Under the pieces are notes generated by a model. The model had not been told where the DNA came from. It saw only the letters and a list, made by a program, of their open reading frames with translations, and made no database searches. Below are positions 8,509-64,000 of a stretch of DNA of 64,000 bases, in pieces; position 1 is the stretch's first letter, and every line of letters starts with the position of its first letter. Origin of the DNA: Planctomycetes bacterium UBA1146 (lineage in GTDB: Bacteria; Planctomycetota; UBA8108). The translations under genes were made by a program, and so were the position numbers. The stretch is taken from positions 2,432 through 66,431 of the forward strand of contig CAUZHA010000009.1 in NCBI GenBank assembly GCA_963579555.1, given 5' to 3'.

Positions 8509-8512
8509 AAGA

Positions 8513-28200: not shown

Positions 28201-29943
28201 GGCGAAGTGGAATTCGCCGAATTCTTCTCCAGGATTACCCACCCTGTTTCCATCTGGAGTGCCATCATCAGTCAGAATGAAGGTACTTGACTCCTCGACT
28301 ATGACCGCGGGCTCGCCCTCGAGAGCGACGTTCCTGAGAAGAATATGGGTGACATTGAGACGATCGGTATCGATCAGATAGTACTGGCCGGTGATCGTAT
28401 CAGGATCGAGGAAATTTTCCGTCGGCAGTACCTCCAGGTCGACCTGGGCAAGGCCCTGGCCAAACTGGTAGTCATCATCTGTCGAGGTCCGGCCCTCGAG
28501 AAGCCCGGGGTTGTAGGGAGCGCCCCAGCTGGCATCGGTCTCGTTCCTGTCAAGGTTGGTATCGTTATCGAACGACTCCGTGATCTCAGCGGATCTCCAG
28601 TCGGAAACCGGATCTTCCGGGCGATCTTCGAGCCAGTAATAGATAAACGAGGGCGCCATGAAGGTATGCGAATTGAAATCACGGTCACCCGCATCGGGAA
28701 CGGGACGAACCCGGAAATGAACCGTCCAGTGTCTCGGGGGAGAGATGCCGGCCTCGACAGTCTCATTCAAGTCCCTGAAAAGAGGATCGCATTGGGCGTC
28801 CCATACGAAGGTCCGATGGAGGCCGCTGGAAGGCAGCATGCGCTTACCGAGGTACTTATGCTGAATCGTTCCGCAGGTAATCTCAAACTTGCCGTCGTTC
28901 GCAGGATCTTCGTCGCGCGGCTTCGCCGGCTGCCACTCAAGCTCCCCGAGGGGATTGTCAACAGCCCATTCAAACTCCATGGTATAGGATGCATCGACCA
29001 CCAGTTCGTAGCAGGTGTAGTCAATTCGGACGGATCCGGTCGCGATCCCGGTGGGGCCTCGCATTCCGTTGACAACCGCACCGATGACCTCGATGAGGTT
29101 CTCATTGGCGACCGGGATCTCTACCCTGTTCGAAGAGCCAGAACTGCTCCTGGCGACAATGCCGAGATTCTCCCGCGGCAAAGCGAAAGGGAAAGAGAAG
29201 TTGTTATTGCCCGTGGCCCCATGATTGAGAACGAATGAAAAGGATTCATAGCCGGAAGGAACGCCGCCGGGAACAAAGGCCCCGGTGGCCTGGTTACGAA
29301 TAAAGGTGCTCGCAGGCACGCGGGCGGTGTTGCCGCCGCCATCATCCAGATCAAGATAGGCTACGTCGGTGAGATTGATACCGTAAATGTTGACCCGGCT
29401 GTTCTCCTGGAAGCGTGAGAGCAACGGTATGTAGACAACATATTCATCCTCTTCATTCGCTCCGAGCGTAACGGCGTAGATAGAGGGACACGCGTCAAAA
29501 CCGACGGCCCCGGCCGACACGCCATGGCAGAGCATCTCGATATTACCAGAGGTCACGCCAGTGGGGACAATGACCTCGAGATAGGACTCAACGGTGGCGC
29601 TGTTTGCATCCACGCGAAGATTGACCACGTCAAGCGGCATGCCTTCGATCGCTCCGTTGCCTCCGGAGAAGAGAACCTGGTGGCTCTCGATCTCATCGGC
29701 GAAATTGAATCCGTTGAGACGGATAATGGTTCCCGGGCAGAGGGGATCCTCATCGTTGCCCACCCCTACGCGCTCGTAATTGAGCAAAACGCAGGCGGTA
29801 AGGTCACCGATCACGGGATCCGGTTCTTCCCAAGGGAAGCCCCCTCCTCCACTATTCGACTGGTCCCAGGAGAGATCGCACCCCCCGACGAAGAGAGAAG
29901 CCCCCAATAGGGCGATGATAATGAAGAGGCTATTCCGGTTCAT
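25255..29943 (-). CDS. Giant (1562 aa) glycine-rich secreted lipoprotein with IPT/TIG-like N-terminal region and long poly-Gly/GGxGG repeat zones
   Basis: N-terminus MNRNSLFIIIALLGASLFVGGCDLSW (lipobox-like VGGC). Dozens of G-runs (GGGGGGGGG, GGSGGEG…). Its 24-nt gap to ftsY is convergent. Function unknown. Confidence 0.6.
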   Translation of the reverse strand: MNRNSLFIIIALLGASLFVGGCDLSWDQSNSGGGGFPWEEPDPVIGDLTACVLLNYERVGVGNDEDPLCPGTIIRLNGFNFADEIESHQVLFSGGNGAIEGMPLDVVNLRVDANSATVESYLEVIVPTGVTSGNIEMLCHGVSAGAVGFDACPSIYAVTLGANEEDEYVVYIPLLSRFQENSRVNIYGINLTDVAYLDLDDGGGNTARVPASTFIRNQATGAFVPGGVPSGYESFSFVLNHGATGNNNFSFPFALPRENLGIVARSSSGSSNRVEIPVANENLIEVIGAVVNGMRGPTGIATGSVRIDYTCYELVVDASYTMEFEWAVDNPLGELEWQPAKPRDEDPANDGKFEITCGTIQHKYLGKRMLPSSGLHRTFVWDAQCDPLFRDLNETVEAGISPPRHWTVHFRVRPVPDAGDRDFNSHTFMAPSFIYYWLEDRPEDPVSDWRSAEITESFDNDTNLDRNETDASWGAPYNPGLLEGRTSTDDDYQFGQGLAQVDLEVLPTENFLDPDTITGQYYLIDTDRLNVTHILLRNVALEGEPAVIVEESSTFILTDDGTPDGNRVGNPGEEFGEFHFANFTISPQTTVFVQGVEPLVIRCSGGDNSVSDTDPVFTILGLLDLNGGAGADGSLVGGSGGEGIAGGGEGGDGALMQLTGATSAAVQLLEPATDGVNGGGGGTTPAAVNPDTARNSTFAGAPGGGGGHRVRGGDGDYGTTNISGFIQPRVGKGGVARGNALQIPLTAGSGGGGGGASLSRVSMGAEFASTGGGGGGGGGGAMRLTARGSVVVIGSILANGGAGGSGRVPPGEAPAGTTNGGAGGGGSGGSIHLRATGSVDVTSCDSLQVRGGAAGSGGPSNGQNRSGGSGTGGDGFIRLESGTGGTPFCMTLQATTRLTSTLSGSNNRNQSIRVQSTQAFPSAGFVKIEEEVIGYGGKTASTFTGLTRAVQGTRTSHSSNTMVFVYPSTIEPATDPAVLENGGFIEASEEPSFGRGRDGVVHLRFIQSLDPNTGEILLDEITGRPISVWTFDTTTSILRSPVGNIVKETRESDLNPGFLDLSALIIDEDVVLRATGPNPLTISVKDYAEIAGTIDTSGGVGGALRFIGGGETPLFGLGGVPGAGGGGGGAGGMISHADGNPNNRSAGNTQVTRGEASVLPNLITTLNGLPLVFRPGLPNIDGSTGGGSLPGRTCGFDCFESGGGGGGGGNRQAGQDGDVKLLPGNGGLAGQLAGQGGDTVNFPNQRLTLLGQAPQLALVGGMGGGGGGGSANISRAYRNESIIGNYPYKGEALYAPGTGGGGGGGILHIVAQDLYLRSSARLVSRGGDAYQSLDLAGNGGAGAGGTIFLQVQNTITLESGVQFDVTAGQANQLPPFFSSGVRLYEGNIRAASTNTAPALTGTPFGGLGGPSSNGRIRIEYSPSSRIRSQGVNPSVTTGPFLTDIVESVAVSKIYRIGVGPGRAASNHALLLDGARVDYNTFQQPPGTRAIVVWESAGESLDVHGQAGELTGFVRDPRKLEGTRYVRFRVYFQSKYGTGETQSIQSLSLPFRLDEAGCLPFGF

Positions 29944-50177: not shown

Positions 50178-53100
50178 TCACTCGCAGATATCGTCAGCGG
50201 TTGGATCAGAGCCGATCCCGGGAAACGGCGCCGGCGGCATCTGGGTTACATCGGCGGGGTCCTGGAGGAATTGAAGCAACCTCATCAGATCGCCGAAATT
50301 GAGACGGCCATCATCATTGATATCAGCAGCGTCATGGTTGTCCGGCCAGACACCCGCTCCACCAAAGAGGAGACTCGAAAGCAGGGTCACGTCAGAGTCC
50401 GTAACCTGCCGGTCCCCATCGACATCTCCTCGAATAAACGGCGGGGGATCCAGGTAAAGAAGGAAGCCTTCACTCTGGGCCAGGGTCAGTGGATCCCGAA
50501 CCCGCAGCGAAGCCTGCCCTGCACTTTCGCGGCTCGGAGCAAAAAAGCTCAGATGCTGTCCTGAGTGGAATACGAACCCTGCGGAATCAACAACGATTCC
50601 ATCGACCAGGACCTCGCAACGATCTGTGAAGCCATCTCCGAAGAGATCTACATGGCTACCGCCACAGATCGAGACCGCGTTGGGCTGGACCAAGTTGACC
50701 TCGATCTGGTTGGGCTCCGGCTGCATATCCGGACACTCTCCCTCGATGATATCCAGGGGAGTTGGCAGCGACAGGACCTCGATGGGCACGCCGGCAAGAT
50801 CAAAAGGATCCAGGACCTCGACCACCACGAAGGCCTCGTCGAGGACAGGCAGCCCTTCGACGGGAGCTCGAACGAGCATCGTGCGGCCGTCGTTTGAAAC
50901 AGCCGATCGTCCTGAACGTTCAAAAGGCAACGCGACCATCGGCTCGAGGCCATCGACCTGCAGCTTCACCACGGTGCTGCGGGAGAACCCGGCGCCTCTC
51001 ACCTCGATGAAATCACCACAGCCTGCCCGCAGGCTGCTCACGTCAACGCCTTCAAGGCTGGGCGACTCGAAGGAATAGACCTCGGGAAGGAGTGCATCCT
51101 GCCCTCCGGTCGAGAGCAGGATGTCGTAGAGTACGCTGCTTGAAGCCGGAAGCGCGGCGGGCCTCGGTCCGAGAGCATCCGGTACGACAAAGGATATGGC
51201 GCCGGAGTCCATAACGGTAATATTCGCAGCGGGAACCTCGATGCTCTCAGAGCCTCCTTCTACAGGAACAAGCCTGATTTCCGGGGTGAGCCCGGCGCCG
51301 CCATCGAGGCCTTCGCCTGAAAGCCGGACCTCGTTTCCACCTGTGAGTGGCCCCGTAACCGGCGTAGCCGAGGCGAGCCCGAGCGCGGGAAAGTTGCCGC
51401 CAAGGGTCACACTCGTATCCAGGAATGCGTCGATCACCGGTCGGCCGGGAATAGCCTGCTCCGGGAAGAAGGAGGTGGGCTGATCGGCGGAGGGATCAAA
51501 CAGGAAGGTGATCTGCGAGATGGTCCGCGGATCGTCCGGGGCCAGCTTCGAGGCGAAGGTGAAGTTCAGGACGGTTCCATCCTCAAACGGAGCGATAAAG
51601 TCAGACCCGAGAGTGGAAAAGTTGAAGCTGATCCAGCCGACCCTCAGGTCTCCGCTCGAGTTGATGTCAGGAAGCGTATCCTCTACAGGCAGGAAGATCT
51701 CCCCGAGGTCAGCAGCGACCGTGCCCTCCTGCTCCTGGTCAACGGGCAGGAGCTCGAGGTGCTCGGGGTTGAACTGCAGGTGAACGGTGTAGGCATTGAA
51801 GCGATAGTTCGGTATCTCAGACGGAGCGCGGAGGCTTCCTTTCACGGCAACATGGAAAATCGCGGAATCCTCCGCATCGGGAACCAGGTCAAGCTTGAGG
51901 TAGCTATTCGCGTATTGAATAGCTCCCTCTGCCATGTCGAGAGAACGCCAACTGTCAAAGCCGGAGAAACGAATGCGTATGTTCTCGAGTCGAATGAGAT
52001 TACCCTGGGGAAGCACCGCAGGAAGCTCGGCCTGGAGCTTCGCCAGGACAACCTCGGAGGAGCCTCCGATAGACTCGAGGACCAGGTCGCCCTCGCTCAC
52101 CGTGATCCGCTTGAGGCCATCACCTTCGGGAACCGAAGCGAGCGCCGGGCTCAGCAGCGAGATGGCCTCTGGGATCACGAGCTCGAATTCAACCGCCTCG
52201 ATAGCTGAGGAGAGCCCGGAAGTCACGATCGGAATTTCAAAGGAGGGCTCTCCTACCGCGGCAACGACCGCTCCAAGAGAGATGGAGGGTGAATAGATAA
52301 CGCCACCGACACAGCTGGCCTCGTCTCCGCCAGCGCTCAGGGTTACCTCGTAGGAGCCAACCGGCTCAATAGAGTCAAAGAAATAGCCGGTATCGCTGGG
52401 TAGGATATCGAAGACGGTCCTCGAGTCGACCGTCGCGCCCGCGATGACATGGCTCAGCTCGAGCTGAAGCAGGCTGTCTCCATAGCCGCGCCAGGGGGAG
52501 TCCCAGTTGACTGCGATCCCGCCGGAATCCTTGACGCACAAGATGGCGACCTCGTCCAGGTCAGGAGCATTCAGCGTGAAGGGCTGGAAGGTGACCGAAT
52601 CGCTGTCGATCGGGGTCCCTGCCGGGAACCCATCACAGGCGCCATCAGCGTTCTTTGTCGCCGTCAAGGTGAGCGTATAGGTTCCCGGAGCCGCCCCGCC
52701 CCGGCCCAGCTCACCTTCGTAGATGAAGGAGTCCTGGTTGGCCTCCTGCCCCTGCAACTCCATACCCGTCTCACCGAAGAGATTGACCGGAGCGCTGCCT
52801 GGAGCCGCCGGCTCAAAAAGAAGCTCGAGCCTCATGAGATCGTAGGCCTCTCCGTTGATCCAGTCCCAGCGGATCCTCAGTGGAGCCGAGGAGCTCGAGC
52901 GTGACAGGAGCGTCCCCACCACCGGCGAACGAATAGGAACCTCGGTATCACAGGGCTCCGGATCGAGTCCACTGCAGGCTCCCCTGGAGCTCTCGATGCC
53001 GCCGATGACCGCGCTGACCTCGTAGAGATCACTGCCATCGTCGGCTGAGGGGCTGTCCTCAAAGATAAAACCTCCCACCGGCAGAACGCTCGACCTGAAG

Positions 53101-56100
53101 GAGCCGTTTCGATAGATCCTGAACTGTTCGACGGCAATCCCCGGATCCCAATCCCAGGTCACGATGTTGAGCTCACCTTCCTTGCCACAGCGCACATCGC
53201 CGGGCTGGGGAACATGCACCACTCCACAGATCACAGTCGGGCCGATATCACTGTCGGCAAGCAGGGCCTCAACGGAAATGGAAACATCGCCGGGAGAGGA
53301 GACCCCCACGAGGTAGGAGCCGCTGTCCCAGTCGATATAGATCGGTGGACCCTCGGCTATCCGGATCTTGACGCGATCGTAGCGCAGGACCTGAGCCTGC
53401 CAGGAGATGAGCACCTCTGAAGAGAGAGCGCCCCTTTCCTGGACATTGCAGCTCACCTCGAGCTCCGGCGGAGGCGGCGGCTCGAGCTCGAATTCTATCG
53501 CCTCGCCCATCTCCACAGGGACCTCCTGCGAGACCCCCGCCTCAACAGCCGTCAGGACATTGGATACGACCGTGGCCCCGGAAAGGGCAAACCCGATACG
53601 GGTGTCGGTACGCCCGAACACCTGGCGGCAGCGGAACCTGAAGACACCCAGCTCGACATTGTCGAAGGCGGCCCCGGTGGTGTCCTGCTGGTAGGTCATC
53701 GAGGCGGTGGCGAACCCCCCGCAGCTATTATCGCTCTCATCCTCGGGGCAGGCCTCGAACAAGGCCAGCTGTTCAAACCCGGACGGCGCGGTGAAGCCGA
53801 GGTAATCGAGCTCAAACCGTTCATAGTCGAGAGCGACGGAATAACCCGAGAAGGATGCCTGGATATCCGCAAAGACCTTCACCCCGAAGGCAGCGTCCGC
53901 TTCAAGGCTTGCCAGGTCATCGATGGTGACGTCATTACCATTCTCATCCACAGGCTGCAGGCGGTAGCGGGTAGGATCCGGAACCGTCGCGGCCTGGACT
54001 CCGAGCGACCCATAGACCAGCGGAGAATCATCGGAGACCGTGGCGACATCAAGGCCTGTATCTCCATTGAGATCGAGCAGCGCGAGGCCCGAGACGACTC
54101 CCGCCTCTCCGGCATCCAGCTCGATCTTCTCGAAGCTCTGCCCGACACCCGGAATGCTCTGGTTTCTCAGAACGACGAGGCTGCCGCGGTCTTCTTCGCC
54201 TGCGCCGCCGACCACCAGGTCCGCGGAACCAAGCAGATCTCCATCGAGATTGGAGGCCTCCAGGAGGTCTCCCCGATGAGCGACAACTCCGTTGAGATCG
54301 ACCGTTTCGGGAACGACCTCCTCGAAGAGAAGTCCGCGCGGCTCGTCGCCGCTGAGGCTTCCCAGCAGGTCATTGCCTCCATCAAAGCCCCCGGCGAGCA
54401 GGTCACCCACATCTCGATAGGTGTTTTCATGCAGAAGGGGCGAGCTGTCCTTCCAGGAGACGACATCGACATCTCCATCTGTATCAAAATCGAAAACGAT
54501 CCACGCATCAGGAGCGTAATCGCCTTCGACGGAATCCTTCAAAACTCCCACCTTCCGGAAAGAGAAAGGGTTGGCGCTGGTGGTCTGGTTTCGATAGAGA
54601 ACCAGGCTTCCAGCCAGGTCGCCGTCCATCGCCTCGCTGACCAGATCCAGGCGTCCATCGTTGTCGAGGTCTGCAAGCTGGATCTTCCGGCTCGGGTCAA
54701 ATCCCGAGATGGGATTGCGCAGAGGCGCGAACTGGAGCTCGAGAAGGTTCTCGGGATCATTGAAGTTGAACTGGCCATCGGCAGGAAGCCCCATGGTCAG
54801 CTGAAAGATGGTCAGGTAGCCGGTGGACTCCGGCTCTTCATCTTCCACTGGAAGTCCGAGGTCGCCAAAGTCGCCGAGTCCGGCGGGAAGACCAGGCACC
54901 GCGTCAGCGGCAAAGCTGCCATCCCCATGCAGGGCCATCAACTCCGGCAAACCGTCTGAATCCAGATCCGCAAGATAAAGACTGGGCGCGGAAGCTCCCT
55001 CGCCCCCATCGGAAAGAGTCGCGAAATCCAACCGGGACTCGGTAGAGGAGATGGAGCCTGAATCGCCAACACGATACTCCTGTAACCTCAACTCACCCTG
55101 AGAACCCAGAAGCATAGCCACGATCTGGACCGATCCATTACTGTCCGCATCCACCGCCACCGCATCCGTAAAGGTCCAGCCTGCAGGCACTGCGGCTGTA
55201 CCCCGGCGCCCCTGGGAATCATAGAGCGTCACCAGGGTAGAGCTGACAGTAAGCAACTCAACTGCCCCTGAGCCCGGCATAAAATCAGCCGCGAGGACTG
55301 CGACAGCCCGATCAGGCGCCAATGGCTCGAGATAATCCGGTTCCCAGCCGCCCTCGTTCAGACCGGGACGAACCTGGAAGGTTAATTGGTAAGGAGACAA
55401 GGGAGACGAACCGGCACCGCTGATATTGCTGGTGAAGGTCACGCTGACCTTCTCCCCGGGCAGGAAACTGTCCGAAGCCCCGAGGACATGAACCACGCTG
55501 GTCAGCACATCGCTCTGTTCCAGCCGTGAGACGCCGCCCGGGTGACTTCCAGACTGCCCCCCCATCACCCTGACCGCGTCACTCTCGGTCCCGGCGGTGA
55601 TGTTCTCACTGAGATAGGCGGTCACCGCTGGTCTCAGGCTCGCGGCCCCGGAGGACTGCAGCGGGATGGTCTCACGCACAAAAAGCTCTCCCTCCGAGCG
55701 GGCCTCTCCGCCTTCAACGGTAAAGCTGAAAACATAGGGGGCTGAAAAGGGAACATTGAGCACGGTGACGTCTTCAGACACCTTCACCGTAATCCGCTCA
55801 CCGGGTTTAAACTGCTCGAGCGGGTTGAGCAGGAAGACAAGGGTGTTGTCCCCCCCCGGCTCCTCAGTTCCTTGTGACGGATCCAGGGGATCGATCAAGG
55901 CGGGTGGCTGGTTGATTCCAGCCTGGAATTCCACGATCGTCTGGCCGTTATAAACATCCTGCTCATTGGCGACGACAATCGTGCCGCTGTATTCACCGCT
56001 GGTCTGGTCACCGGTCACGGTGATCATCCCGGACTCTGTATTCGCGATGTCGGACGCGGTCATCGTATTGGTAAGCCGGACGGCTATGACCGGCTGAGCC

Positions 56101-56399
56101 ATGATTTCGCTATCACCGCGGGCCGGAATGGTCCATTCAACATCCGCGGAATCGTATTTACAGGCAGGCAGAGCCGCCAGGGCCGGAAGCACCAGGAGAC
56201 TCAGCAGGCGAACGAAACCCGGAAAAACGGGGAGGGAAGACTCTCTTAGCATGATCACTTCTCTGGGGGTGGAAACCAGTAAGATGCCAGGAAGATCCGG
56301 AAAGAAGATCGTATCACAGGGGGAACTGCCGGCATCCTGCCAAAACTCATTAAGTGCCCCTCTACCGGATTTCTCCAGGTAGCCCACGGGAACTTTCAT
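50178..56399 (-). CDS. Giant (2073 aa) extracellular protein with FG-GAP/VCBS-like calcium-binding repeats, Ig/IPT-like regions and C-terminal dockerin-like + Cys-containing tail
   Basis: FG-GAP-like loops (ADLDSDGLPELMALHGDGS, DLDNDGRLDLVS, DFDTDGDVDVVS, DLNGDTGLDVATVSDD). C-terminus RGDVDGDRQVTDSDVTLLSSLLFGG…DAADINDDGRLNFGDLMRLLQFLQDP…PPAPFPGIGSDPTADDICE. The likely true start is ATG 56252 (MLRESSLPVFPGFVRLLSLLVLPALAALPAC…, lipoprotein-type signal). Confidence 0.6.
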   Translation of the reverse strand: MKVPVGYLEKSGRGALNEFWQDAGSSPCDTIFFPDLPGILLVSTPREVIMLRESSLPVFPGFVRLLSLLVLPALAALPACKYDSADVEWTIPARGDSEIMAQPVIAVRLTNTMTASDIANTESGMITVTGDQTSGEYSGTIVVANEQDVYNGQTIVEFQAGINQPPALIDPLDPSQGTEEPGGDNTLVFLLNPLEQFKPGERITVKVSEDVTVLNVPFSAPYVFSFTVEGGEARSEGELFVRETIPLQSSGAASLRPAVTAYLSENITAGTESDAVRVMGGQSGSHPGGVSRLEQSDVLTSVVHVLGASDSFLPGEKVSVTFTSNISGAGSSPLSPYQLTFQVRPGLNEGGWEPDYLEPLAPDRAVAVLAADFMPGSGAVELLTVSSTLVTLYDSQGRRGTAAVPAGWTFTDAVAVDADSNGSVQIVAMLLGSQGELRLQEYRVGDSGSISSTESRLDFATLSDGGEGASAPSLYLADLDSDGLPELMALHGDGSFAADAVPGLPAGLGDFGDLGLPVEDEEPESTGYLTIFQLTMGLPADGQFNFNDPENLLELQFAPLRNPISGFDPSRKIQLADLDNDGRLDLVSEAMDGDLAGSLVLYRNQTTSANPFSFRKVGVLKDSVEGDYAPDAWIVFDFDTDGDVDVVSWKDSSPLLHENTYRDVGDLLAGGFDGGNDLLGSLSGDEPRGLLFEEVVPETVDLNGVVAHRGDLLEASNLDGDLLGSADLVVGGAGEEDRGSLVVLRNQSIPGVGQSFEKIELDAGEAGVVSGLALLDLNGDTGLDVATVSDDSPLVYGSLGVQAATVPDPTRYRLQPVDENGNDVTIDDLASLEADAAFGVKVFADIQASFSGYSVALDYERFELDYLGFTAPSGFEQLALFEACPEDESDNSCGGFATASMTYQQDTTGAAFDNVELGVFRFRCRQVFGRTDTRIGFALSGATVVSNVLTAVEAGVSQEVPVEMGEAIEFELEPPPPPELEVSCNVQERGALSSEVLISWQAQVLRYDRVKIRIAEGPPIYIDWDSGSYLVGVSSPGDVSISVEALLADSDIGPTVICGVVHVPQPGDVRCGKEGELNIVTWDWDPGIAVEQFRIYRNGSFRSSVLPVGGFIFEDSPSADDGSDLYEVSAVIGGIESSRGACSGLDPEPCDTEVPIRSPVVGTLLSRSSSSAPLRIRWDWINGEAYDLMRLELLFEPAAPGSAPVNLFGETGMELQGQEANQDSFIYEGELGRGGAAPGTYTLTLTATKNADGACDGFPAGTPIDSDSVTFQPFTLNAPDLDEVAILCVKDSGGIAVNWDSPWRGYGDSLLQLELSHVIAGATVDSRTVFDILPSDTGYFFDSIEPVGSYEVTLSAGGDEASCVGGVIYSPSISLGAVVAAVGEPSFEIPIVTSGLSSAIEAVEFELVIPEAISLLSPALASVPEGDGLKRITVSEGDLVLESIGGSSEVVLAKLQAELPAVLPQGNLIRLENIRIRFSGFDSWRSLDMAEGAIQYANSYLKLDLVPDAEDSAIFHVAVKGSLRAPSEIPNYRFNAYTVHLQFNPEHLELLPVDQEQEGTVAADLGEIFLPVEDTLPDINSSGDLRVGWISFNFSTLGSDFIAPFEDGTVLNFTFASKLAPDDPRTISQITFLFDPSADQPTSFFPEQAIPGRPVIDAFLDTSVTLGGNFPALGLASATPVTGPLTGGNEVRLSGEGLDGGAGLTPEIRLVPVEGGSESIEVPAANITVMDSGAISFVVPDALGPRPAALPASSSVLYDILLSTGGQDALLPEVYSFESPSLEGVDVSSLRAGCGDFIEVRGAGFSRSTVVKLQVDGLEPMVALPFERSGRSAVSNDGRTMLVRAPVEGLPVLDEAFVVVEVLDPFDLAGVPIEVLSLPTPLDIIEGECPDMQPEPNQIEVNLVQPNAVSICGGSHVDLFGDGFTDRCEVLVDGIVVDSAGFVFHSGQHLSFFAPSRESAGQASLRVRDPLTLAQSEGFLLYLDPPPFIRGDVDGDRQVTDSDVTLLSSLLFGGAGVWPDNHDAADINDDGRLNFGDLMRLLQFLQDPADVTQMPPAPFPGIGSDPTADDICE

Positions 56400-56747
56400 T
56401 CAACTCGAAAAATTTCAGACCGCCTCAGAGACCCGGATTCTCCTCAACTGGAGATCCACAGCTTGCGAGACTGAAATTCCTCACTCATCAACTGCCGTAT
56501 TATTCAGAACCATTCTGCCTGCTGGAATCGCGGACAAGGTATGTTACGGGGATATGTTCAATGTTAAGGCCTGAACAGGGAGAATTCAACTTTTCACCCA
56601 GCATCAATCCCCCAAGCCTATTATTTTTAATGGCTTACAGAATATTCCAGCTGGCGCTGGAATCCGCCCCTATGGTGATAATTTTTAGTCTGGATCCCCA
56701 TCCAGCGCCGGATCGCCGCGAAGGAGCCGCCTTTTTACGGGCAATCT

Positions 56748-58223
56748 TCAGTTAGCGGGGAAGCATACATGTGACCCAGGCTCGCAATCATCAATTCCGA
56801 GGCCTTCTACGGTCCCGCAATCGGGATAGGGACCATCGGGCGGAGCGTAGAGCGCGAAGTTCGTGGAACCTGGCTGCAACCTGTAGTTGATGATGTACAG
56901 CGCATCGGAGATGGATAGAGCCCCATCATTGTTGGCATCCGCAGCCGGAAGACAGGCAGTCATCTGACCGTTATAGAACAACATCTGAACGATCCAGATT
57001 CCATCGGCGATATCCACATGGGAGTCGTTGTTGGCATCTCCACGAATGAATGTCGGGTCGAGAGCGATTGGAGTGCCCTCGAGGACCACGGTCTTTGTTT
57101 CTTCAATGAACTCCGGAACAACCCCGTTACCGTTAACGACGAACAGGATCTCCAGCGGCCTGTCTTCGCCAAGGGTGGTATCCACAAAGCTGAGCTCCAC
57201 ATCTCTCGAATCGTCTCCAACAAGAGAGACAAGTGATCTCAACGTAATGAAGTCGAGAGGAGCGGCGGACAGGGGCTCGAGGCTGAGAACCTCTGTACCC
57301 GGAGAGCCCAGCTGCACGACAGCCCCGACGCTGATGCCGGTGATCATCCCATCGAGATCCCGATCATCGAGCTTGTAGTTCAGGAACTCAGGCCCCTCGC
57401 CGCCATTCAGGGCGGCGACAGCCGGTCCGGGATTGACCGCGATGCACTCGACAAGCTCGTGATCGACCCGCACGGAATAGGACCAGCCCTGCAGGTCGAC
57501 GGGGTTTTCCTTGCCCAGGTTAGAGACCTCGACCTGGACATCGATCGTGTCCTCTCGATTAGCCGGCAACACACATGGCTCCTCGGAACCAAAGGCGAGG
57601 GCCAGGGAGGCGGTGTCCTCAACGGGTGGAATGGCGCAGGCAACGTTGACGCCGGCGCCCGTTACCTGGTCGGGAAGAATCGCCTGCCCATCAATGGTCA
57701 GGTTGATCTCAATCGGAACACGTCCGGGCTGCGAAAGATCGGAGACAAAGTTGATCTCCGTTGCCAGCCCTTCAACGCCTTCGGCGCATCCGAGCACGGT
57801 GTAGTTGGCAAAGCAGAAGCTGAAGAAATCCGACACCGGAACCTCGGCCGGCTCGATAAAGGAGAGCACGACACCCTGGATAATGCCGGTTCGAGTTCCA
57901 TCCTCTAATTCGATAATCTCGGTGAGAGTAAAGCTGGGAGCGACGAGCGCCGCCTCAGCATCAGACCCCTTCATGGTGACGCTCTCGGCCTGCAGGACCG
58001 CCGGATCGTGGCGAACACCAAAGGACCAGCCCTGCGTTCCACCTGCCCGCGAGACGACTCCGGGCGTGGCCATGACCGTATCGCCCGGCCCGTAGACTCC
58101 CCCTTCCCCCCGATCGAGTCGGATCTCGAGGTCAAAATCCCCGGCCTGCCCGAAAAGAACGGGAGACAGGACCATGACGGTCAGAACGACCCAGGACCGC
58201 CATAATGTATTCAAGGCCTGCAT
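56748..58223 (-). CDS. Secreted protein, paralogue P1: two diverged copies of the GWS…VVLSF module + dockerin-like/Cys-rich C-terminal domain
   Basis: Start ATG 58223 (GGAGA 7 nt upstream; the ORF is open to 58376). Signal peptide MQALNTLWRSWVVLTVMVLSPVLFGQAG. Modules …GTQGWSFGVRHDP…GVVLSFIEP… and …DLQGWSYSVRVDH…. C-terminus RGDANNDSHVDIADGIWIVQMLFYNG…DANNDGALSISDALYIINYRL…YPDCG…C…C. Confidence 0.6.
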   Translation of the reverse strand: MQALNTLWRSWVVLTVMVLSPVLFGQAGDFDLEIRLDRGEGGVYGPGDTVMATPGVVSRAGGTQGWSFGVRHDPAVLQAESVTMKGSDAEAALVAPSFTLTEIIELEDGTRTGIIQGVVLSFIEPAEVPVSDFFSFCFANYTVLGCAEGVEGLATEINFVSDLSQPGRVPIEINLTIDGQAILPDQVTGAGVNVACAIPPVEDTASLALAFGSEEPCVLPANREDTIDVQVEVSNLGKENPVDLQGWSYSVRVDHELVECIAVNPGPAVAALNGGEGPEFLNYKLDDRDLDGMITGISVGAVVQLGSPGTEVLSLEPLSAAPLDFITLRSLVSLVGDDSRDVELSFVDTTLGEDRPLEILFVVNGNGVVPEFIEETKTVVLEGTPIALDPTFIRGDANNDSHVDIADGIWIVQMLFYNGQMTACLPAADANNDGALSISDALYIINYRLQPGSTNFALYAPPDGPYPDCGTVEGLGIDDCEPGSHVCFPAN

Positions 58224-58876
58224 TTCACTCTCCTTGCGCATTGAAAATGCGACAATAAAAACAATGCAATAGAAGCCTCCATTCGGGGCAGGCTTTACCG
58301 CTAATGAACTTGGTTTTCCAGCAATGGCGCCGCTGTTCTCAACATTCCGCCAATCCGTACCAGGCGGAGGCTTCACCTGAAATCAGGCGCCAATTCTCTT
58401 CAATTATTCAGCCAGTTGCCGGTCAACCGGACTGGCTTTCCTCCGCTCCGCTGCCCTTAGCCCAGCTGTTTTTCACCAGCAAAAGCAATACTCAACAAAG
58501 GCAGAACTGACGGAAGGCGGTTCATTCAGACACAAAAAAATGAGACCAGTAACGATTATATGCCTCACCTAGAAGGCTGTCAACGCAGGTAAATAAAGGA
58601 GCCGATCGCGAGATAGAAAAATGGCTTCAAACTGTTGATTTCAGACCAAAACAGCAAGATTAGGGTTTTGTAAGATACGTGTGCCTCCAGGAGGCCGCAT
58701 TCGGCATAGAGGAGATTCGTTCAAATACTTGCTAATACCCCCCCCTAAACCGCGCATTGAACGCTGCAGAAGGCCTCTGGGGAGCTCTGGAGGGCTATAG
58801 ATCACCCCCAGCACTAGGAACAACTGCTTTTGCAGCACCCCGAAATACCGACCCAAAGCCAGGGGAATCATTAGAA

Positions 58877-58914
58877 AAATCCCCGTGACCGGAGCGACCC
58901 TGTCACGGGGATTT
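58877..58914 (-). terminator. Rho-independent terminator downstream of P2
   Basis: Perfect 13-bp inverted repeat AAATCCCCGTGAC / GTCACGGGGATTT with a 12-nt loop. The U-tract is on the minus-strand transcript (…GGGGAUUUUUCU). It lies 29 nt after the P2 stop. Confidence 0.55.
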
Positions 58915-58942
58915 CTTACTCTTCATTTAGCAGCGAAATGGA

Positions 58943-60454
58943 TCAGGAACAGCCCTGCGTATCGCTGTCACAGCCGAGACCATCATCATCCAGAATCGAG
59001 CCGCCATCCCTGCCGCAGATGGGGAAGGGAGCCGAAGGCGCATCACCGGCACGGAACTGGTGATTGATCATCAACATGACGTCGGTAACGTCGACATTGG
59101 AGTCGTCGTTCGCATCCGCCGCATCTTCACAAGAGGGCTCAGGGCCATTTCGAAAGAGATAGTTGACTACGTTGATAGGATCAGCAATGTCCATCTTGCC
59201 ATCGCTGTTGACGTCGCCGCGAAGGAAAGAGTTCCTGAGATCTTCGATCTCAGTGAACGAAACATTCAGGACCTGGCGGGCACAGAAATCGGCGGAGCTG
59301 CCTCCAACAGTGGCGACGTTGGCCACCGGCTGGCCGGCTCCAACCATCCCGTCGTCCCAGGAAATACTGCCTGTAATCGAATCAGCTCCCTGCTCCGAAG
59401 CTGACTCGAGCGAGAGCGCGAGCACGGTCGCCGTACCGACAACATCCAGAGTGATCGGCATGGTAAAGGAGAGCACCACGGCGCTTACCGCGCCCTGCTG
59501 GCCGCCGTTGTTGTCCGGATTGACCACCTCGGTCTTCTCAAAGCCGGTGTTGCGCAGTCCGCCCTGGCTGACATCCGCAGAGGATGTGCCGTCGGTCGTG
59601 GCGCCGACGAGGTTCATGCCGCCGTTGACGGCAGCTGAAAGCGACCAGCCCTGCACCCCGTCGCCACCCGCATTGTTACTGACAATCGCGGCGAAAACGT
59701 CGACCGCTCCAATCCCTCCGGTAGGCACATCAACCGAGAGGGAAGCATCATCATCCACCGACTCTGCCAACATACCGGCGTTCAACTCAGCGGCCGGGCC
59801 GAGGCTCTCGGCCTGGAAGATCAGGTTAGGACTCGCGCCCTCACAGGTAACCACGGCAATGCAGTTGATGGTTGCCGAAGAGAAGGACGGATCGACCGTC
59901 TGGCCATTCCAGGTGACCGTGTTCTCAACCGGCTGCCCGGCACCTTTACACCCATCGGCATAAGACACGGTGCCCGCGCCACCCTCATCGGGGATCGTCG
60001 CATCGACCGCGACCTTGGCGATCTCGTTGACGGAATCGCCGGGCAAGGTGATGGGCTGCACAAAAGACAGCACCACGGCGCTCACCGCGCCTTCAAGGCC
60101 ATCGCAGAGAGATCCCGCGCCGGCCTCGGTGGTCGTTTCGCTCTTCTCAAAACCGGTATTGCGAAGGCCGCCCTGTGAAACATCGGCCGCAGCCGTTCCC
60201 TCTGTCGTAATTCCAGTGATCGCGGCACAACCTTCAGCCGCCAGGCTGATCGACCAGCCCTGGGCCCCTCCATCCGCATCCCCTCCCTGCGACATGGTGC
60301 AGGTCAGCTCGAGGGACTGAACCGAACCCGGATTGCCGGCAACATCTCCGCCGCCACCGATTGCAAGATCGAAAGTCGGCTGCGCAGAGGCGGTGCCGAT
60401 TCCAAGTACAAGTAATCCTGTGAGGATTACGCCACGGAAAACCAGACTTCTCAT
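58943..60454 (-). CDS. Secreted protein, paralogue P2: two GWS…GGLRNTGFEK…VVLSF…GAGQPV modules + dockerin-like/Cys-rich C-terminal domain
   Basis: RBS GGGAGGG then ATG. Signal MRSLVFRGVILTGLLVLGIGTASA. Modules at ~res 60-190 and ~270-430. C-terminus RGDVNSDGKMDIADPINVVNYLFRNG…DANDDSNVDVTDVMLMINHQF…PSAPFPICG…C…C. Confidence 0.65.
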   Translation of the reverse strand: MRSLVFRGVILTGLLVLGIGTASAQPTFDLAIGGGGDVAGNPGSVQSLELTCTMSQGGDADGGAQGWSISLAAEGCAAITGITTEGTAAADVSQGGLRNTGFEKSETTTEAGAGSLCDGLEGAVSAVVLSFVQPITLPGDSVNEIAKVAVDATIPDEGGAGTVSYADGCKGAGQPVENTVTWNGQTVDPSFSSATINCIAVVTCEGASPNLIFQAESLGPAAELNAGMLAESVDDDASLSVDVPTGGIGAVDVFAAIVSNNAGGDGVQGWSLSAAVNGGMNLVGATTDGTSSADVSQGGLRNTGFEKTEVVNPDNNGGQQGAVSAVVLSFTMPITLDVVGTATVLALSLESASEQGADSITGSISWDDGMVGAGQPVANVATVGGSSADFCARQVLNVSFTEIEDLRNSFLRGDVNSDGKMDIADPINVVNYLFRNGPEPSCEDAADANDDSNVDVTDVMLMINHQFRAGDAPSAPFPICGRDGGSILDDDGLGCDSDTQGCS

Positions 60455-60797
60455 TTTTCCCTCCCGGAACTAAACACGACCCCCTCGTTCTCCGGAATCG
60501 ACATCATGCCAACCGGAATGTTGAATTTCCGGACGCAGGTATCTGGAATCCCAGGAGTCGGAGCAACGTCGTCGTCTCACGACACGGATCACAATTTCTA
60601 TTTAAAACCAGCCATCCTCTTTCATGACCCTGAAGAGAACGCACTGGTCCGATAACACTATGCGGGGGCAATTCTATCCCTTGATTACACCCTGAGATAC
60701 TAGCATTTAATAAAAGAAACGAGTTTTGGAGAAAAGCCCCTTAAGCTGCCGCTGAGGGCTCTCAAGTGAAATACTTAACTCTCTACTAACATCAAAA

Positions 60798-60888
60798 AAG
60801 AGACGGACCAGGAAGCTTTCAGCTCACCACGCCCGTCTCTTCAGATTCAGTATATTCCGGGCTTGAAACCTGACGGCCATTCAAGCCC
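60798..60888 (-). terminator. Candidate tandem hairpins downstream of P3 (weak terminator call)
   Basis: GGGCTTGAA-12 nt-TTCAAGCCC (60859-60888) is immediately after the P3 stop. Then AAGAGACGG-26 nt-CCGTCTCTT (60798-60841) is followed on the minus transcript by UUUUUUGAUG. Confidence 0.3.
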
Positions 60889-60906
60889 GGCTCAGATTTC
60901 ACTCAC

Positions 60907-61839
60907 CTAATTACAAATCGACGACTCGCAATCAACATCACCGGCCTCTCCACAGGAGGGATACGGAGCGCTTGGCGCCGGGCCTCCGGAGAATCTGAAG
61001 GCGATATTGTAGAGCGCGTCGGAAACGTCATTCAGTCCGTCTCCATTACAATCGACGCTGGCAAGGCACGTTGCCGCCGCCCCGCCGCGGAAGAGACTGT
61101 TAACAATGAAAATCGCGTCAGCGATATCGGACTGGCCATCATCATTCGGATCACAGCGCAGGAAGGACGGGTAGACCATCTTCTCAAAAACGAGCAGGGC
61201 GGCCTGGCACGTACAGAAATCGGCCGTGGCGCCGCTGACGGTGGCTACATTCGCGACCGGTTGGCCAGCGCCAACGAGACCGTCCTGCCACTCAACCCGT
61301 ACCTCCTGGGTCGTGTCGGACAGGGGTTCCGAGGTGGCGATCTCGATATTCAGGATGCCAGCGGTTCCAGAACCGCTCAAGGTAACCGGCATGGTGAAGG
61401 AGAGCACCACGGCGCTTACCGCGCCTAAAGCTCCTTCGTTGCGATCAGGATCCACGACCTCGGTCTTTTCAAAACCGACGCTGCGCAGTCCACCCTGGCT
61501 GACATCAGCGCCAGCTGTTCCATCTAGGTTCGCACCGGTGGGGATCCCTCCGGTAACCAGGGCGGAAAGTGACCAGCCCTGGACACCGCCGGCATCGATG
61601 CCATTGGAAACAATCGCCGCATGCACAGTAGCAGTCCCTATCTCACCCTCAGCGGCATAGACGGTTGAGGAACGAGGCGCGTCAATACCATCAAGCGCAC
61701 TGATATCAGCGGATTCGACAATGGCCTCGTCGACAATCGCGATGCTCAGCGACGCATTCGCACAATCCCCGGCATTGACCGCACCTGCCAGGCAGAATGC
61801 CGTCAAAAAGCCAAAACAGATTCCGAGAAGATATTTCAT
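60907..61839 (-). CDS. Secreted protein, paralogue P3: one GWS…GGLRSVGFEK…VVLSF…GAGQPV module + dockerin-like/Cys-rich C-terminal domain
   Basis: Start ATG 61839 preceded by GGAGGAG-aatgat (the ORF is open to 61869). Signal MKYLLGICFGFLTAFCLAGAVNA. C-terminus RCDPNDDGQSDIADAIFIVNSLFRGG…DCNGDGLNDVSDALYNIAFRF…PSAPYPSCGEAGDVDCESSICN. Confidence 0.65.
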   Translation of the reverse strand: MKYLLGICFGFLTAFCLAGAVNAGDCANASLSIAIVDEAIVESADISALDGIDAPRSSTVYAAEGEIGTATVHAAIVSNGIDAGGVQGWSLSALVTGGIPTGANLDGTAGADVSQGGLRSVGFEKTEVVDPDRNEGALGAVSAVVLSFTMPVTLSGSGTAGILNIEIATSEPLSDTTQEVRVEWQDGLVGAGQPVANVATVSGATADFCTCQAALLVFEKMVYPSFLRCDPNDDGQSDIADAIFIVNSLFRGGAAATCLASVDCNGDGLNDVSDALYNIAFRFSGGPAPSAPYPSCGEAGDVDCESSICN

Positions 61840-61890
61840 ATCATTCTCCTCCATGTTGTCAGTAATCAAAAAGTCCCTGCGGCGACCGCC

Positions 61891-61908
61891 GATCTATCAA
61901 GATAGATC
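61891..61908. promoter_or_regulatory. 18-bp perfect palindrome GATCTATC-AA-GATAGATC upstream of P3 (candidate operator)
   Basis: Seen directly at 61891-61908, 52-70 nt upstream of the P3 start codon. Confidence 0.4.
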
Positions 61909-61909
61909 T

Positions 61910-61921
61910 CCCCCCCCGGGG
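61910..61921. repeat. C8G4 homopolymeric tract adjacent to the palindrome in the P3 promoter region
   Basis: Seen directly: tctccccccccggggccgc. Confidence 0.6.
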
Positions 61922-62374
61922 CCGCATTGACCTTATCGTTAATTGAAGTGAACCACCAGGTGAGCCCATATAGCCTCAACCGGTGAATCAATAGTTACAG
62001 TCACATTCACGGCAATAGGAAACCAGGACTTCCTGGAAGCATAAAGCCATCTCTTACTCTCCGCCTGCAAGACGGAGACCGAGCACCCCGGGCCCGCGCA
62101 GAGCAAAGGGTCTCACTATAAAACTGGCTCACCTGGCACGGCGAGGGAGTTCCAAACAGCTCCTCGCTCGATACGACTCCGCGAACCGAAGCACGACTAA
62201 ATGGCTCGAGTCCAAACTCTCTCGAAGCCTGAGAACTCAGATCAGAGAAAAGGCACCATGGGCAAACCAGCCCACCCTTTCAAAAACCTGAGTCATCGAG
62301 TGTACCGCCTGATGCCTCCGATGGAAGTCCTATATTTTTTTCTTAAAAGACCCTTTCTGCCCCCGGCTCGAGGC

Positions 62375-62411
62375 AAAAAAAAAAATGGGCGGCATCTCGA
62401 AGATGCCGCCC
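62375..62411 (-). terminator. Strong rho-independent terminator downstream of P4
   Basis: GGGCGGCATC-tcgaa-GATGCCGCCC (10-bp GC-rich stem, 62387-62411) is followed on the minus transcript by U11 (plus-strand A11 at 62375-62385). It lies 25 nt after the P4 stop. Confidence 0.7.
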
Positions 62412-62435
62412 AAGCAACCCTAACTTAACCCGATC

Positions 62436-63983
62436 TTATGGACAGGAAGAACTCTCGCAAGCCAATCCGTCCGGCGTAGCATCTTCGCCACAGGAGGGGA
62501 ATGGAGCCGCCGGTACGGGACCAGCCATGAACCTGTACGCGATCGTAAACAACGCATCCGAAATATCGGTTTTGCCGTCGTCATTTGAATCCGCTGAAGC
62601 GAGACAGGGCGGGGTCGGACCATTGCGAATGAGCCAGTTGATCGTGTAGATCGGATCGGCAATATCGACCTTGTCATCATTGTTCGCATCGGCGCGCACA
62701 AACACGGCGCTGGGGGGCGAACAGGCATCTTCGCTGTGGACAACCGTGATCCCGCTAATCTGGCGGGGAGCCACCGTCTGGCCCTGGACCGTCAGTACGG
62801 TATCAACCGGCTGTCCTGCGCCGATCAGTCCATCGGTAAAGTTGATCTCCGAGGAGAAGCCCTCTCCCCCGGCGCCTTCGGCTACAACGTAGCGCGCCCG
62901 GAGTATGGACTGATCCTGGGTGGCATCGAGAACGATCGGCATGGTAAAGGAGAGCACCACGGCTGAAACAAGCCCGGCCCGACCATCATTCCTTGCGGGA
63001 TCGATAATCTCGGTCTTCTCAAATCCGGTACTCCTTATTCCGCCGTCGTTCACATCACCGGCGACCGTTCCCGAGGTTGTCGGGTAGGTGTCATTGGTGA
63101 TCGTAAGCTCTGCGGGGTTGTGCTCGATTCCGAGTGACCAACCCTGGGCGCCCGCGTTCGGGGGGTCGTTGGGATCATTCGGCCCGATATAGGCAGTCAC
63201 CAACGCCTCTCCACCTCCCTCTGAGGAACAGAGAACGATCTGGGAGGCATCCGGATTGTCCGAAGTTCCAAGCTTGAGGTCCGTACCGCCGGCACAAGCC
63301 GCCGCATCAGCGCAATCGGAGTCGTCACAATCAACAGACCCATCTCCATCGTTGTCCTCACCATCTTCACAGTCAGTCTCCGGCGGCGGAGGCGGCTCAA
63401 TGTTGACAGTAAGGGCAGCCAGGGTCGGAGTAGCCGTCTGGCCCTCAAAGGTGACATCGTTGTTCACCGGCTGTCCGGAACCGACCAGGCCATTGCGATA
63501 CTCGATAGTTCCAGTAGAGGCCTCGGCTCCCACCGTTGCTTCGTAATCGACGAAGCCGACGATCTGATCGGTATTCGGAGGCAGGGTGATCGGCATGACA
63601 AAAGAAAGCACCAGGGCCTGAACGAGACCCTGCTGGCCGTCATTGCGGTCAGGATCTACAATCTCAAAGACCTCAAAGCCGGTACTTCGAAGGCCTCCAT
63701 CCGCAACATCCGCCGCTGCGGATCCCGCGGTGGTCACCGCTGAAATATTAACTCCATCATTGGCGACACCCATGGACCAGCCCTGGGGACCAGTGGCACC
63801 GTCAAGGTCACTGGAACCGAGGATCAACTTTACCTGGAAAGGTACCGTTGATCCCGCTTCCGCCTGGATGCTTGCGGGAGCATCCTCAAAGCTATAGCTA
63901 AAGCTACCCTGGGCCTCTAAGACCGCTGTCCAACAGAGACAGAGGAATCCAGCGACCAGGGTGGTTGAGATCCTACCCATCAT
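62436..63983 (-). CDS. Secreted protein, paralogue P4: two GWS…GGLRSTGFE…VLSF…GAGQPV modules separated by an Asp/Cys-rich linker + dockerin-like/Cys-rich C-terminal domain
   Basis: RBS AGGAGA then ATGATG. Signal MMGRISTTLVAGFLCLCWTAVLEAQG. Acidic linker PPPPPETDCEDGEDNDGDGSVDCDDSDCADAAACAGG. C-terminus RADANNDDKVDIADPIYTINWLIRNG…DSNDDGKTDISDALFTIAYRF…PAAPFPSCGEDATPDGLACESSSCP. Confidence 0.65.
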   Translation of the reverse strand: MMGRISTTLVAGFLCLCWTAVLEAQGSFSYSFEDAPASIQAEAGSTVPFQVKLILGSSDLDGATGPQGWSMGVANDGVNISAVTTAGSAAADVADGGLRSTGFEVFEIVDPDRNDGQQGLVQALVLSFVMPITLPPNTDQIVGFVDYEATVGAEASTGTIEYRNGLVGSGQPVNNDVTFEGQTATPTLAALTVNIEPPPPPETDCEDGEDNDGDGSVDCDDSDCADAAACAGGTDLKLGTSDNPDASQIVLCSSEGGGEALVTAYIGPNDPNDPPNAGAQGWSLGIEHNPAELTITNDTYPTTSGTVAGDVNDGGIRSTGFEKTEIIDPARNDGRAGLVSAVVLSFTMPIVLDATQDQSILRARYVVAEGAGGEGFSSEINFTDGLIGAGQPVDTVLTVQGQTVAPRQISGITVVHSEDACSPPSAVFVRADANNDDKVDIADPIYTINWLIRNGPTPPCLASADSNDDGKTDISDALFTIAYRFMAGPVPAAPFPSCGEDATPDGLACESSSCP

Positions 63984-64000
63984 GTTCTCCTATTCACTTT

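Follow-up and report, generated by a model that had tools for sequence, protein, structure and literature searches.

Five adjoining genes of a marine planctomycete, carried on the minus strand of a 64-kb stretch of contig CAUZHA010000009.1 (the whole stretch is called the window below), encode secreted proteins that all end in one domain, a dockerin extended by a tail that appears to be stapled by cysteines. One of the proteins is a giant (G2073, 2073 aa; 50178-56399) and four are small: P542 (542 aa; 56748-58376), P503 (503 aa; 58943-60454), P320 (320 aa; 60907-61869) and P515 (515 aa; 62436-63983). The small proteins were named P1-P4 in a first-pass annotation of this DNA, which took the shared domain for a possible sorting or anchoring signal. 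Our analysis leads to another view: the five genes likely encode a non-cellulosomal cohesin-dockerin self-assembly system, and the domain would not be a secretion tag. To our knowledge, research on cohesin-dockerin pairs, the high-affinity protein 'Lego' that is best known from bacteria, has been confined almost wholly to cellulolytic Firmicutes.

Results

Five adjoining genes share a C-terminal dockerin

The first-pass annotation described one C-terminal domain common to five consecutive genes, and this observation holds. All five open reading frames (ORFs) end in a homologous domain of 88-103 aa that can be aligned over its full length. When a hidden Markov model (HMM) of the five copies was run against the six-frame translation of the window, only these five were retrieved (E 1e-32 to 1e-43), the next match having E>1; the shared domain is not a chance likeness. 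The domain had been called invariant, which overstates its conservation: it is conserved but variable, the other four copies being 32-53% identical to that of P515. Its pattern reads F-x-R-G-D-x-N-x-D-x-x-x-D-I-x-D, a helix, G-G-x-x-P-x-C, D-x-N-D-D-G-x-x-D-x-S-D, a second helix and P-x-A-P-F-P-x-C-G, and ends with an acidic stretch holding two more cysteines. A looser motif fits all five copies, namely two D-x-N-x-D-x-x-x-D-x-x-D loops with their helices, then P-x-x-P-[FY]-P-x-[CI]-G, and the tandem duplication of a ~22-residue segment made of an EF-hand-like loop and a helix is present in every one of the five proteins. Dockerin and tail together cover residues 1985-2073 of G2073 (50181..50447, minus strand as for all features of the cluster; family HMM 1.9e-32), 440-542 of P542 (56751..57059; the four-cysteine version; 1.3e-37), 407-503 of P503 (58946..59236; 5.7e-40), 233-320 of P320 (60910..61173; 5.6e-40) and 425-515 of P515 (62439..62711), the copy that was modelled by AlphaFold.

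Pfam Dockerin_1 (PF00404) matched four of the five proteins, and its aligned part covered the first ~55 residues only. Against a gathering score of 22.9 bits, the matches reached 28.8 bits on G2073 (E 1.5e-6), 32.1 on P503, 22.9 on P542 and, under the gathering score, 19.8 on P515; P320 had no Pfam match in this region. A profile of 83 homologs matched the CelS/Cel48S dockerin of C. thermocellum (PDB entries 2MTE and 1DAQ) at E 1e-8. It found 30 matches among PDB sequences, including 27 further dockerin-containing chains, all over the two-loop core only. The calcium-ligand columns D8, N10, D12, D19, D41, N43, D45 and D52 were invariant or nearly so in the 83 sequences. The AlphaFold model of the P515 domain scored a predicted local distance difference test value (pLDDT) of 94.8 and a predicted template-modelling score (pTM) of 0.86, with pLDDT 82-97 over the tail, and it places helices at residues 18-29 and 50-61. 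Compared with the PDB by Foldseek, the best 30 matches of this model were all dockerins, mostly from cohesin complexes (probability 0.44-1.0, the top 25 reaching 0.85 or more; TMt of the best 0.72-0.80). Some members of the family are already named 'dockerin type I repeat-containing protein' by NCBI. Since the Pfam matches, the profile matches to solved dockerins, the fold and the conservation of the calcium ligands all agree, the type-I dockerin architecture proposed in the first pass is correct, and the first ~60 residues of the domain are almost certainly a type-I dockerin.

The family thus shares with type-I cellulosomal dockerins the duplicated 22-residue segment of an EF-hand-like calcium loop and a helix, the fold, and its usual place at the C-terminus of secreted modular proteins. 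It differs from them by a ~30-residue proline-rich tail with up to three cysteines, by a cysteine in the linker, by its host, a member of the Planctomycetota, and by its cargo, which is non-cellulolytic.

The tail may be clasped to the dockerin by disulfides

Homologs of the tail follow P-x-P-[FY]-P-x-C-G-x-D-P-T-x-D-x-L-x-C-x-x-x-x-C, typically with 23-26 residues from P-x-P-F-P to the stop codon, in a proline-rich extension of ~30 residues. In library and PDB profile searches, this extension lay outside every Pfam and NCBIfam model and every solved dockerin. The cysteine-containing tail noted in the first pass is therefore real and conserved across homologs; the count of two to three cysteines given for it was inexact, as there are three in each of the four small proteins and one in G2073. 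The four small proteins also have a conserved cysteine in the linker between the two calcium loops, which G2073 lacks.

Cysteines were counted in 566 domain instances, where they occupy column 36 in 95%, column 74 in 52%, column 85 in 92% and column 91 in 43%. They co-occur in pairs, 36 with 85 (odds ratio 30, p 1e-14) and 74 with 91 (odds ratio 85, p 3e-82), these p-values overstating the evidence because the instances are linked by phylogeny and so not independent. A third, optional pair, 7-42 (counts 36/0/1), is present in P320, where it sits in the two calcium loops (FLRCD / VDCNGDG). The four-cysteine form is enriched among C-terminal copies. In the P515 model, DSSP assigned bridges that join residues 3-4 to 75-76 and C36 to C85, and the F conserved in FxRGD is paired with the PFP of the tail. 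The model suggests that the tail folds back along the dockerin and pairs with the strand ahead of the first calcium loop. Taken with the co-occurrence of the cysteines, it also suggests a disulfide Cys36-Cys85 that would staple the tail to the inter-repeat linker, and the co-occurrence suggests a second one, Cys74-Cys91, in most C-terminal copies. On the strength of the cysteine co-occurrence and the DSSP bridges, we read the tail as a disulfide-locked structural extension.

An intramolecular clasp is known to stabilise cellulosomal dockerins and their binding to cohesin (Slutzki et al. 2013, PMC3821032). By analogy, the tail would be the covalent counterpart of this clasp: in both cases, residues just before the first calcium loop contact C-terminal proline or aromatic residues. 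The known clasp is a single non-covalent contact, whereas the present one involves a long conserved extension, apparently locked by one to three disulfides.

The four small proteins are built of cohesin-like modules

The first-pass annotation saw the dockerin as borne by otherwise unrelated cargo. This does not apply to P542, P503, P320 and P515, which to judge from their sequences are paralogous throughout, because one module recurs in all of them, once or twice per protein; the description does apply to the family as a whole, whose secreted cargo is diverse (see below). The module is ~160-200 residues long and is found once in P320, twice in P503, twice in P515 and, in two more divergent copies, in P542. 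The P542 modules lie at residues 100-245 and 275-425 (57102..58079; module HMM 1.2e-15 and 2.8e-5), those of P503 at 38-201 and 204-404 (59243..60343; 1.5e-45 and 9.5e-76), that of P320 at 36-230 (61180..61764) and those of P515 at 34-197 and 219-416 (62736..63884; 1.5e-48 and 1.1e-61).

P320, the sole module-bearing protein that was modelled, was predicted by AlphaFold with a pLDDT of 86.9 overall and above 90 over most of the module, which is all-beta. Searched with Foldseek against the PDB, this model has the fold of a cohesin: 14 of its 19 matches at E<=1e-3 are cohesins (probability 1.0, TMt 0.49-0.67), including 4UMS, 5LXV, 5NRM, 3UL4, 2VN6, 4DH2, 4UYP and 1OHZ (the last also the entry of the Xyn10B dockerin), and the top ones come from cohesin-dockerin complexes. 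We also built an HMM from five inter-dockerin regions of Planctomycetota multi-dockerin proteins that have Pfam Cohesin matches, three of the five above the gathering score. After one iteration, on a small local database where some profile drift is possible, it matched all seven modules of the window (E 2.7e-13 to 3.8e-3). The E-values were 9.1e-10 and 6.3e-7 for P542, 2.8e-6 at best for P503, 1.9e-4 for P320, and 2.5e-11 and 2.7e-13 for P515, the weakest match being the second P503 module at 3.8e-3. In a six-frame scan of the window, it found six of the seven modules at E<0.05 and no ORF outside the four proteins. Finally, 52 of the 54 cohesin-like ORFs in 80 genome loci also bear this dockerin, the loci having been retrieved with the HMM consensus sequence.

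Because the Foldseek matches, the cohesin-seeded HMM and this co-occurrence converge, a cohesin partner is the best-supported reading of the module, in line with an aside of the first pass that a novel module might play that role, and on balance the dockerins probably bind the cohesin-like modules. In P320 and P503 the dockerin starts only ~5 residues past the module. This spacing, together with a whole-protein pTM of 0.76 for P320, hints at a rigid didomain, or at an intramolecular cohesin-dockerin contact, in the P320 model, reminiscent of X-module-dockerin dyads.

With signal-peptide-like N-termini by direct reading (in P503, MRSLVFRGVILTGLLVLGIGTASAQ upstream of the modules), the four small proteins, Sec-secreted and composed solely of one or two cohesin-like beta-sandwich modules and a dockerin, have by analogy the architecture of enzyme-free adaptor scaffoldins. 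Adaptor scaffoldins consist of cohesins and a C-terminal dockerin, as in Ruminococcus flavefaciens ScaA/ScaB and Acetivibrio cellulolyticus ScaB. The likeness extends to the signal peptide, the single C-terminal dockerin, the clustering of the genes and the alternating dockerin-cohesin repeats of relatives. In contrast to scaffoldins, the modules of P1-P4 are too divergent for Pfam Cohesin, their linkers are of ~5 residues where those of scaffoldins are long and rich in proline and threonine, the locus has no carbohydrate-binding module or enzyme partners, and the anchor would be a giant lipoprotein instead of a scaffoldin held by S-layer homology domains or sortase.

The giant is a candidate lipoprotein

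G2073 has eight orthologs with 35-94% identity, most of which begin near its Met50. The called ORF probably starts too early: direct reading and the orthologs place the probable true N-terminus at Met50, which is followed by a hydrophobic signal peptide and then by a lipobox-like L-P-A-C that includes Cys80 (56160..56252). The motif LPAC[KV]xDSADVEW, where LPAC is followed by K-Y-D-S-A-D-V-E-W, comes after a hydrophobic N-terminus in six of the eight orthologs. Since the orthologs share the hydrophobic N-terminus and the lipobox-like motif, G2073 is a candidate lipoprotein, with a probable N-terminal lipid anchor. In its body (50448..56159), Pfam recognised a Big_5 Ig-like domain at 241-342, FG-GAP/VCBS repeats at ~577-647 and a weak TIG/IPT-like domain at 1902-1964.

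The dockerin of G2073 lacks both the linker cysteine and that of PFPxC, and altogether three of the four usual cysteines are absent. It keeps one cysteine a single residue ahead of the C-terminus (…DDICE, 50181-50192). This penultimate cysteine and the tail are conserved in seven of the eight orthologs, and the cysteine may form an intermolecular disulfide.

A large family, mostly of Planctomycetota

The first pass had considered that the domain might occur on only these few proteins. It does not: an exhaustive HMMER search of 1.84 billion cluster representatives gave 59,671 matches at E<=1e-3, the weakest of which will include ordinary dockerins, 31,139 at E<=1e-10 and 1,897 at E<=1e-30. A word-indexed search with the five-sequence profile returned 693 clusters and, among the matches listed, all those with a source name were proteins of Planctomycetota metagenome-assembled genomes (MAGs). 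In the genome collection, ~69 of the 80 top matches were Planctomycetota MAGs as well. Five loci (L028, L053, L065, L066 and L074), one of them on a contig of 341 kb, come from bins that carry a Woesearchaeota, Nanoarchaeota or Patescibacteria label, and may be mis-binned or mislabelled. By these sequence counts, the dockerin subtype is very large and mostly planctomycetal. Pfam detected just 14 of 61 sampled members at E<=1e-4.

Family-wide, the cargo includes LamG, FG-GAP, PKD, LTD, subtilase (S8), CotH, penicillin amidase, di-haem peroxidase, M10 and P_proprotein, a diversity as expected of a docking module, and a single MAG has at least 21 ORFs with the domain at 11 loci. Complete copies, tail included, also occur N-terminally (right after the signal peptide), internally and in tandem, with 2-12 copies per protein in many relatives and, for example, four in one protein of 386 aa; 228 of the 566 instances are internal. 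A recurrent architecture of ~650 aa alternates dockerins (Doc) and cohesin-like modules (Coh) as Doc-Coh-Doc-Coh-Doc.

Among the 120 short homologs listed, about 30 stand alone: they are 112-125 aa long and consist solely of a signal peptide and a dockerin with its cysteine tail, free of any cargo (P0010, P0021, P0038, P0058, P0114 and others). Such proteins might cap cohesin sites or compete for them. One of them, P0058 (L083, 8001-8339), is encoded in a stretch that resembles phage DNA and also holds Rad52, a RecD-like helicase, Portal_Mu and Phage_Mu_F. Moreover, four IMG/VR viral contigs (L085-L088) encode the full domain with its tail, two of them as stand-alone small proteins, and one copy belongs to a 674-aa protein with an apparent cohesin-like segment, seen by eye. 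Through such copies, phages could be using the docking system of the host or imitating it.

Alternative readings of the shared domain

Several observations weigh against docking. Pfam Cohesin (PF00963) gave no match on the whole window proteins at E<=0.1, nor at E<=10 when the two P542 modules and three segments of G2073 were scanned alone. A profile of P320 and its homologs retrieved no cohesin from PDB sequences, and phmmer and hmmsearch runs of the modules and the giant against the same sequences returned dockerin matches only. Because neither Pfam nor these PDB-sequence searches find a cohesin, the cohesin status rests on fold similarity (TMt 0.5-0.67) and on the iterative profile bridge. 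For G2073, the cohesin-seeded HMM gave sub-threshold hints only, of at most 8 bits, at 831-933, 1372-1414 and 1535-1632, and when 200-residue windows of the nine-ortholog alignment were compared with the module profile by hhalign, no probability exceeded 3%. No enzyme bearing this dockerin is encoded within the 64-kb window, and the module that adjoins the dockerin so closely in P320 and P503 could be an X-module-like stabiliser instead of a partner. A further point, taken up below, is that single-copy proteins carry the domain almost at their very end. One might then suppose that the dockerin is a calcium-dependent module with no cohesin partner, serving as a stabilising or solubility element or binding cell wall or exopolysaccharide, and that the beta-sandwiches are unrelated adhesin or Ig-like domains. 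This would agree with the failure of Pfam Cohesin on the window modules, with the presence in the Foldseek lists of the GH123 N-domain, the Ig-like domains of PrgB and TTHA1873, and with the 50 of 80 loci that have dockerin ORFs and no cohesin-like ORF nearby. We nevertheless consider it unlikely, as the top structural matches are cohesins complexed with dockerins, the profile bridge leads to Pfam-recognised cohesins, the module and the dockerin fall on the same protein far above expectation, and the two alternate in relatives.

Another reading takes the domain or its cysteine tail for a C-terminal secretion or sorting signal, which a dedicated Planctomycetota machinery of export or attachment would recognise and possibly cleave. 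The first pass had compared the domain with such signals, namely the C-terminal domain (CTD) of the type IX secretion system (T9SS) and PEP-CTERM. All of these have in common that many secreted proteins of one phylum, diverse as they are, end in a conserved element. In favour of a signal, roughly 90% of single-copy proteins carry the domain 0-6 residues from the C-terminus (111 of 120 matches; near the C-terminus in 117 of 117 of a further set, and in ~136 of 156 complete ORFs of the genome loci), the cargo is very diverse, copies are many per genome, and the four-cysteine form prevails at C-termini. This position does not discriminate, however, because cellulosomal dockerins are mostly C-terminal too. 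The T9SS CTD is a beta-sandwich of ~70-100 aa that occurs once, at the extreme C-terminus only, whereas the present domain is a helical EF-hand pair of dockerin fold, and full copies with their tail are internal, N-terminal or in tandem in many proteins. In PEP-CTERM, LPXTG and other sortase- or exosortase-type signals, a short motif precedes a hydrophobic helix that spans the membrane, and basic residues cluster at the C-terminus; by direct reading, the window tails are acidic and polar (…CGEDATPDGLACESSSCP) and have no hydrophobic, transmembrane or basic segment, and no NCBIfam sorting signal matched the window proteins. There are also the cargo-less proteins of signal peptide and domain described above, and no linked machinery was found, as no neighbouring gene family within ±8 kb recurs in more than 5 of the 80 loci. 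Given that copies lie inside proteins and in tandem, that the fold is that of a dockerin and that no machinery was found alongside, we reject a sorting signal as the main explanation and hold it to be decidedly improbable; one may speak of an anchoring tag only as one does for dockerins, meaning non-covalent docking to a cohesin. Highly improbable, in our view, is that the tail cysteines mainly form intermolecular disulfides that cross-link the proteins into a matrix, with docking secondary. The unpaired penultimate cysteine kept by the giant and seven of its eight orthologs fits such cross-links, as does the odd pattern CCC- at columns 36/74/85/91 in 45 of the 566 instances; but even patterns dominate (CCCC in 233, C-C- in 221), pairwise co-occurrence is strong, and the model puts C36 beside C85, all of which fits pairs within the domain.

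Gene organization and context of the cluster

The cluster adjoins housekeeping genes that Pfam assigns, in the window, to SMC, an NrdD-like reductase, MnmE, YidC and a metallophosphoesterase. A related contig (L001) is syntenic, with products of 675, 514, 312, 503, 504 and 2042 aa. Upstream of its P515 ortholog this contig bears one more gene of this type, its sixth, so that our cluster probably continues beyond base 64000. On a more distant contig, seven such genes stand in a row. Gaps within the five-gene cluster measure 350-570 bp. A strong terminator-like hairpin, a 12-bp stem followed by T10, lies at 62386-62412 on the minus strand, 24 nt past the P515 stop codon, and a perfect TTGACA-17-TATAAT match to the sigma-70 consensus, a promoter-like element by this match only, lies upstream of P542 on the same strand (58555-58583). 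Given the gaps, the terminator and the promoter match, the five genes may be transcribed separately and perhaps do not form one operon.

Between the two P515 modules, residues 200-230 form an acidic cysteine-rich linker (ETDCEDGEDNDGDGSVDCDDSDCADAAAC; 63294-63386, minus strand) for which the NCBIfam model NF033662 ('acidic double-disulfide repeat') gave E 8.8e-8, under the curated cut-off. Three further minus-strand ORFs of the window, 25255-29943, 2801-6022 and 6019-8808 (1562, 1073 and 929 aa), had no Pfam match at E<=1e-3, and HMM scans of the window found in them neither the dockerin nor the cohesin-like module. An Rfam scan of the whole window gave no match and a tRNA scan found none.

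Discussion

The self-assembly that we favour would proceed as follows. The proteins would be exported by Sec, and the dockerin would fold with two calcium ions, its tail becoming clasped by disulfides in an oxidising compartment. Dockerins would then bind, in a calcium-dependent manner, cohesin-like modules, both those of the paralogs and those of further proteins of the genome, and possibly also modules of the giant. Chains or branched networks would result, forming a surface or extracellular scaffold tethered via the lipoprotein giant, and other dockerin-tagged enzymes and adhesins of the genome would dock onto cohesin-like modules left free.

This kind of system is not new, since non-cellulosomal cohesin and dockerin proteins have been noted before in Planctomycetes. 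In the 'planctosome' hypothesis, drawn up for the freshwater Nemodlikiaceae, such proteins assemble peptidases on the cell surface, with an LTD protein as anchor, and the model draws on Pfam-recognisable cohesins and dockerins in one family (Andrei et al. 2019, PMC6461901). Our findings resemble this model in the family-wide cargo, which includes LTD, P_proprotein, S8 and M10. The window encodes proteins with a cohesin-like module and a dockerin; dockerin-tagged S8 and M10 peptidases and LTD proteins were found only in other genomes of the family. Our findings differ in the cysteine-stapled tail, the divergent cohesin family and the conserved cluster of enzyme-free adaptors with a giant, probable lipoprotein, of which the passages of that article considered here make no mention.

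Our search of the open-access literature found no description of these three features. What appears to be new is a conserved tail, probably clasped by disulfides, that sets a very large subtype of dockerins apart, together with a cohesin family missed by Pfam and a conserved cluster of enzyme-free adaptors with a giant, probable lipoprotein. A broader picture, which we offer as tentative and rather doubtful, is that of a phylum-wide surface-assembly system of the Planctomycetota comprising tens of thousands of proteins, in which adaptors bearing cohesin and dockerin polymerise on the lipoprotein giant into a matrix that displays most secreted enzymes and adhesins, with a distinct, covalently clasped type of dockerin that phages possibly exploit or mimic.

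Current domain models miss or only half-cover this abundant dockerin subtype of the Planctomycetota. If the binding proposed here is true, the cohesin-like modules and clasped dockerins would constitute a new, oxidatively stabilised cohesin-dockerin pair for protein engineering, thousands of 'hypothetical' proteins could be better annotated, and there would be a mechanism by which planctomycetes order their large secreted proteomes on the cell surface.

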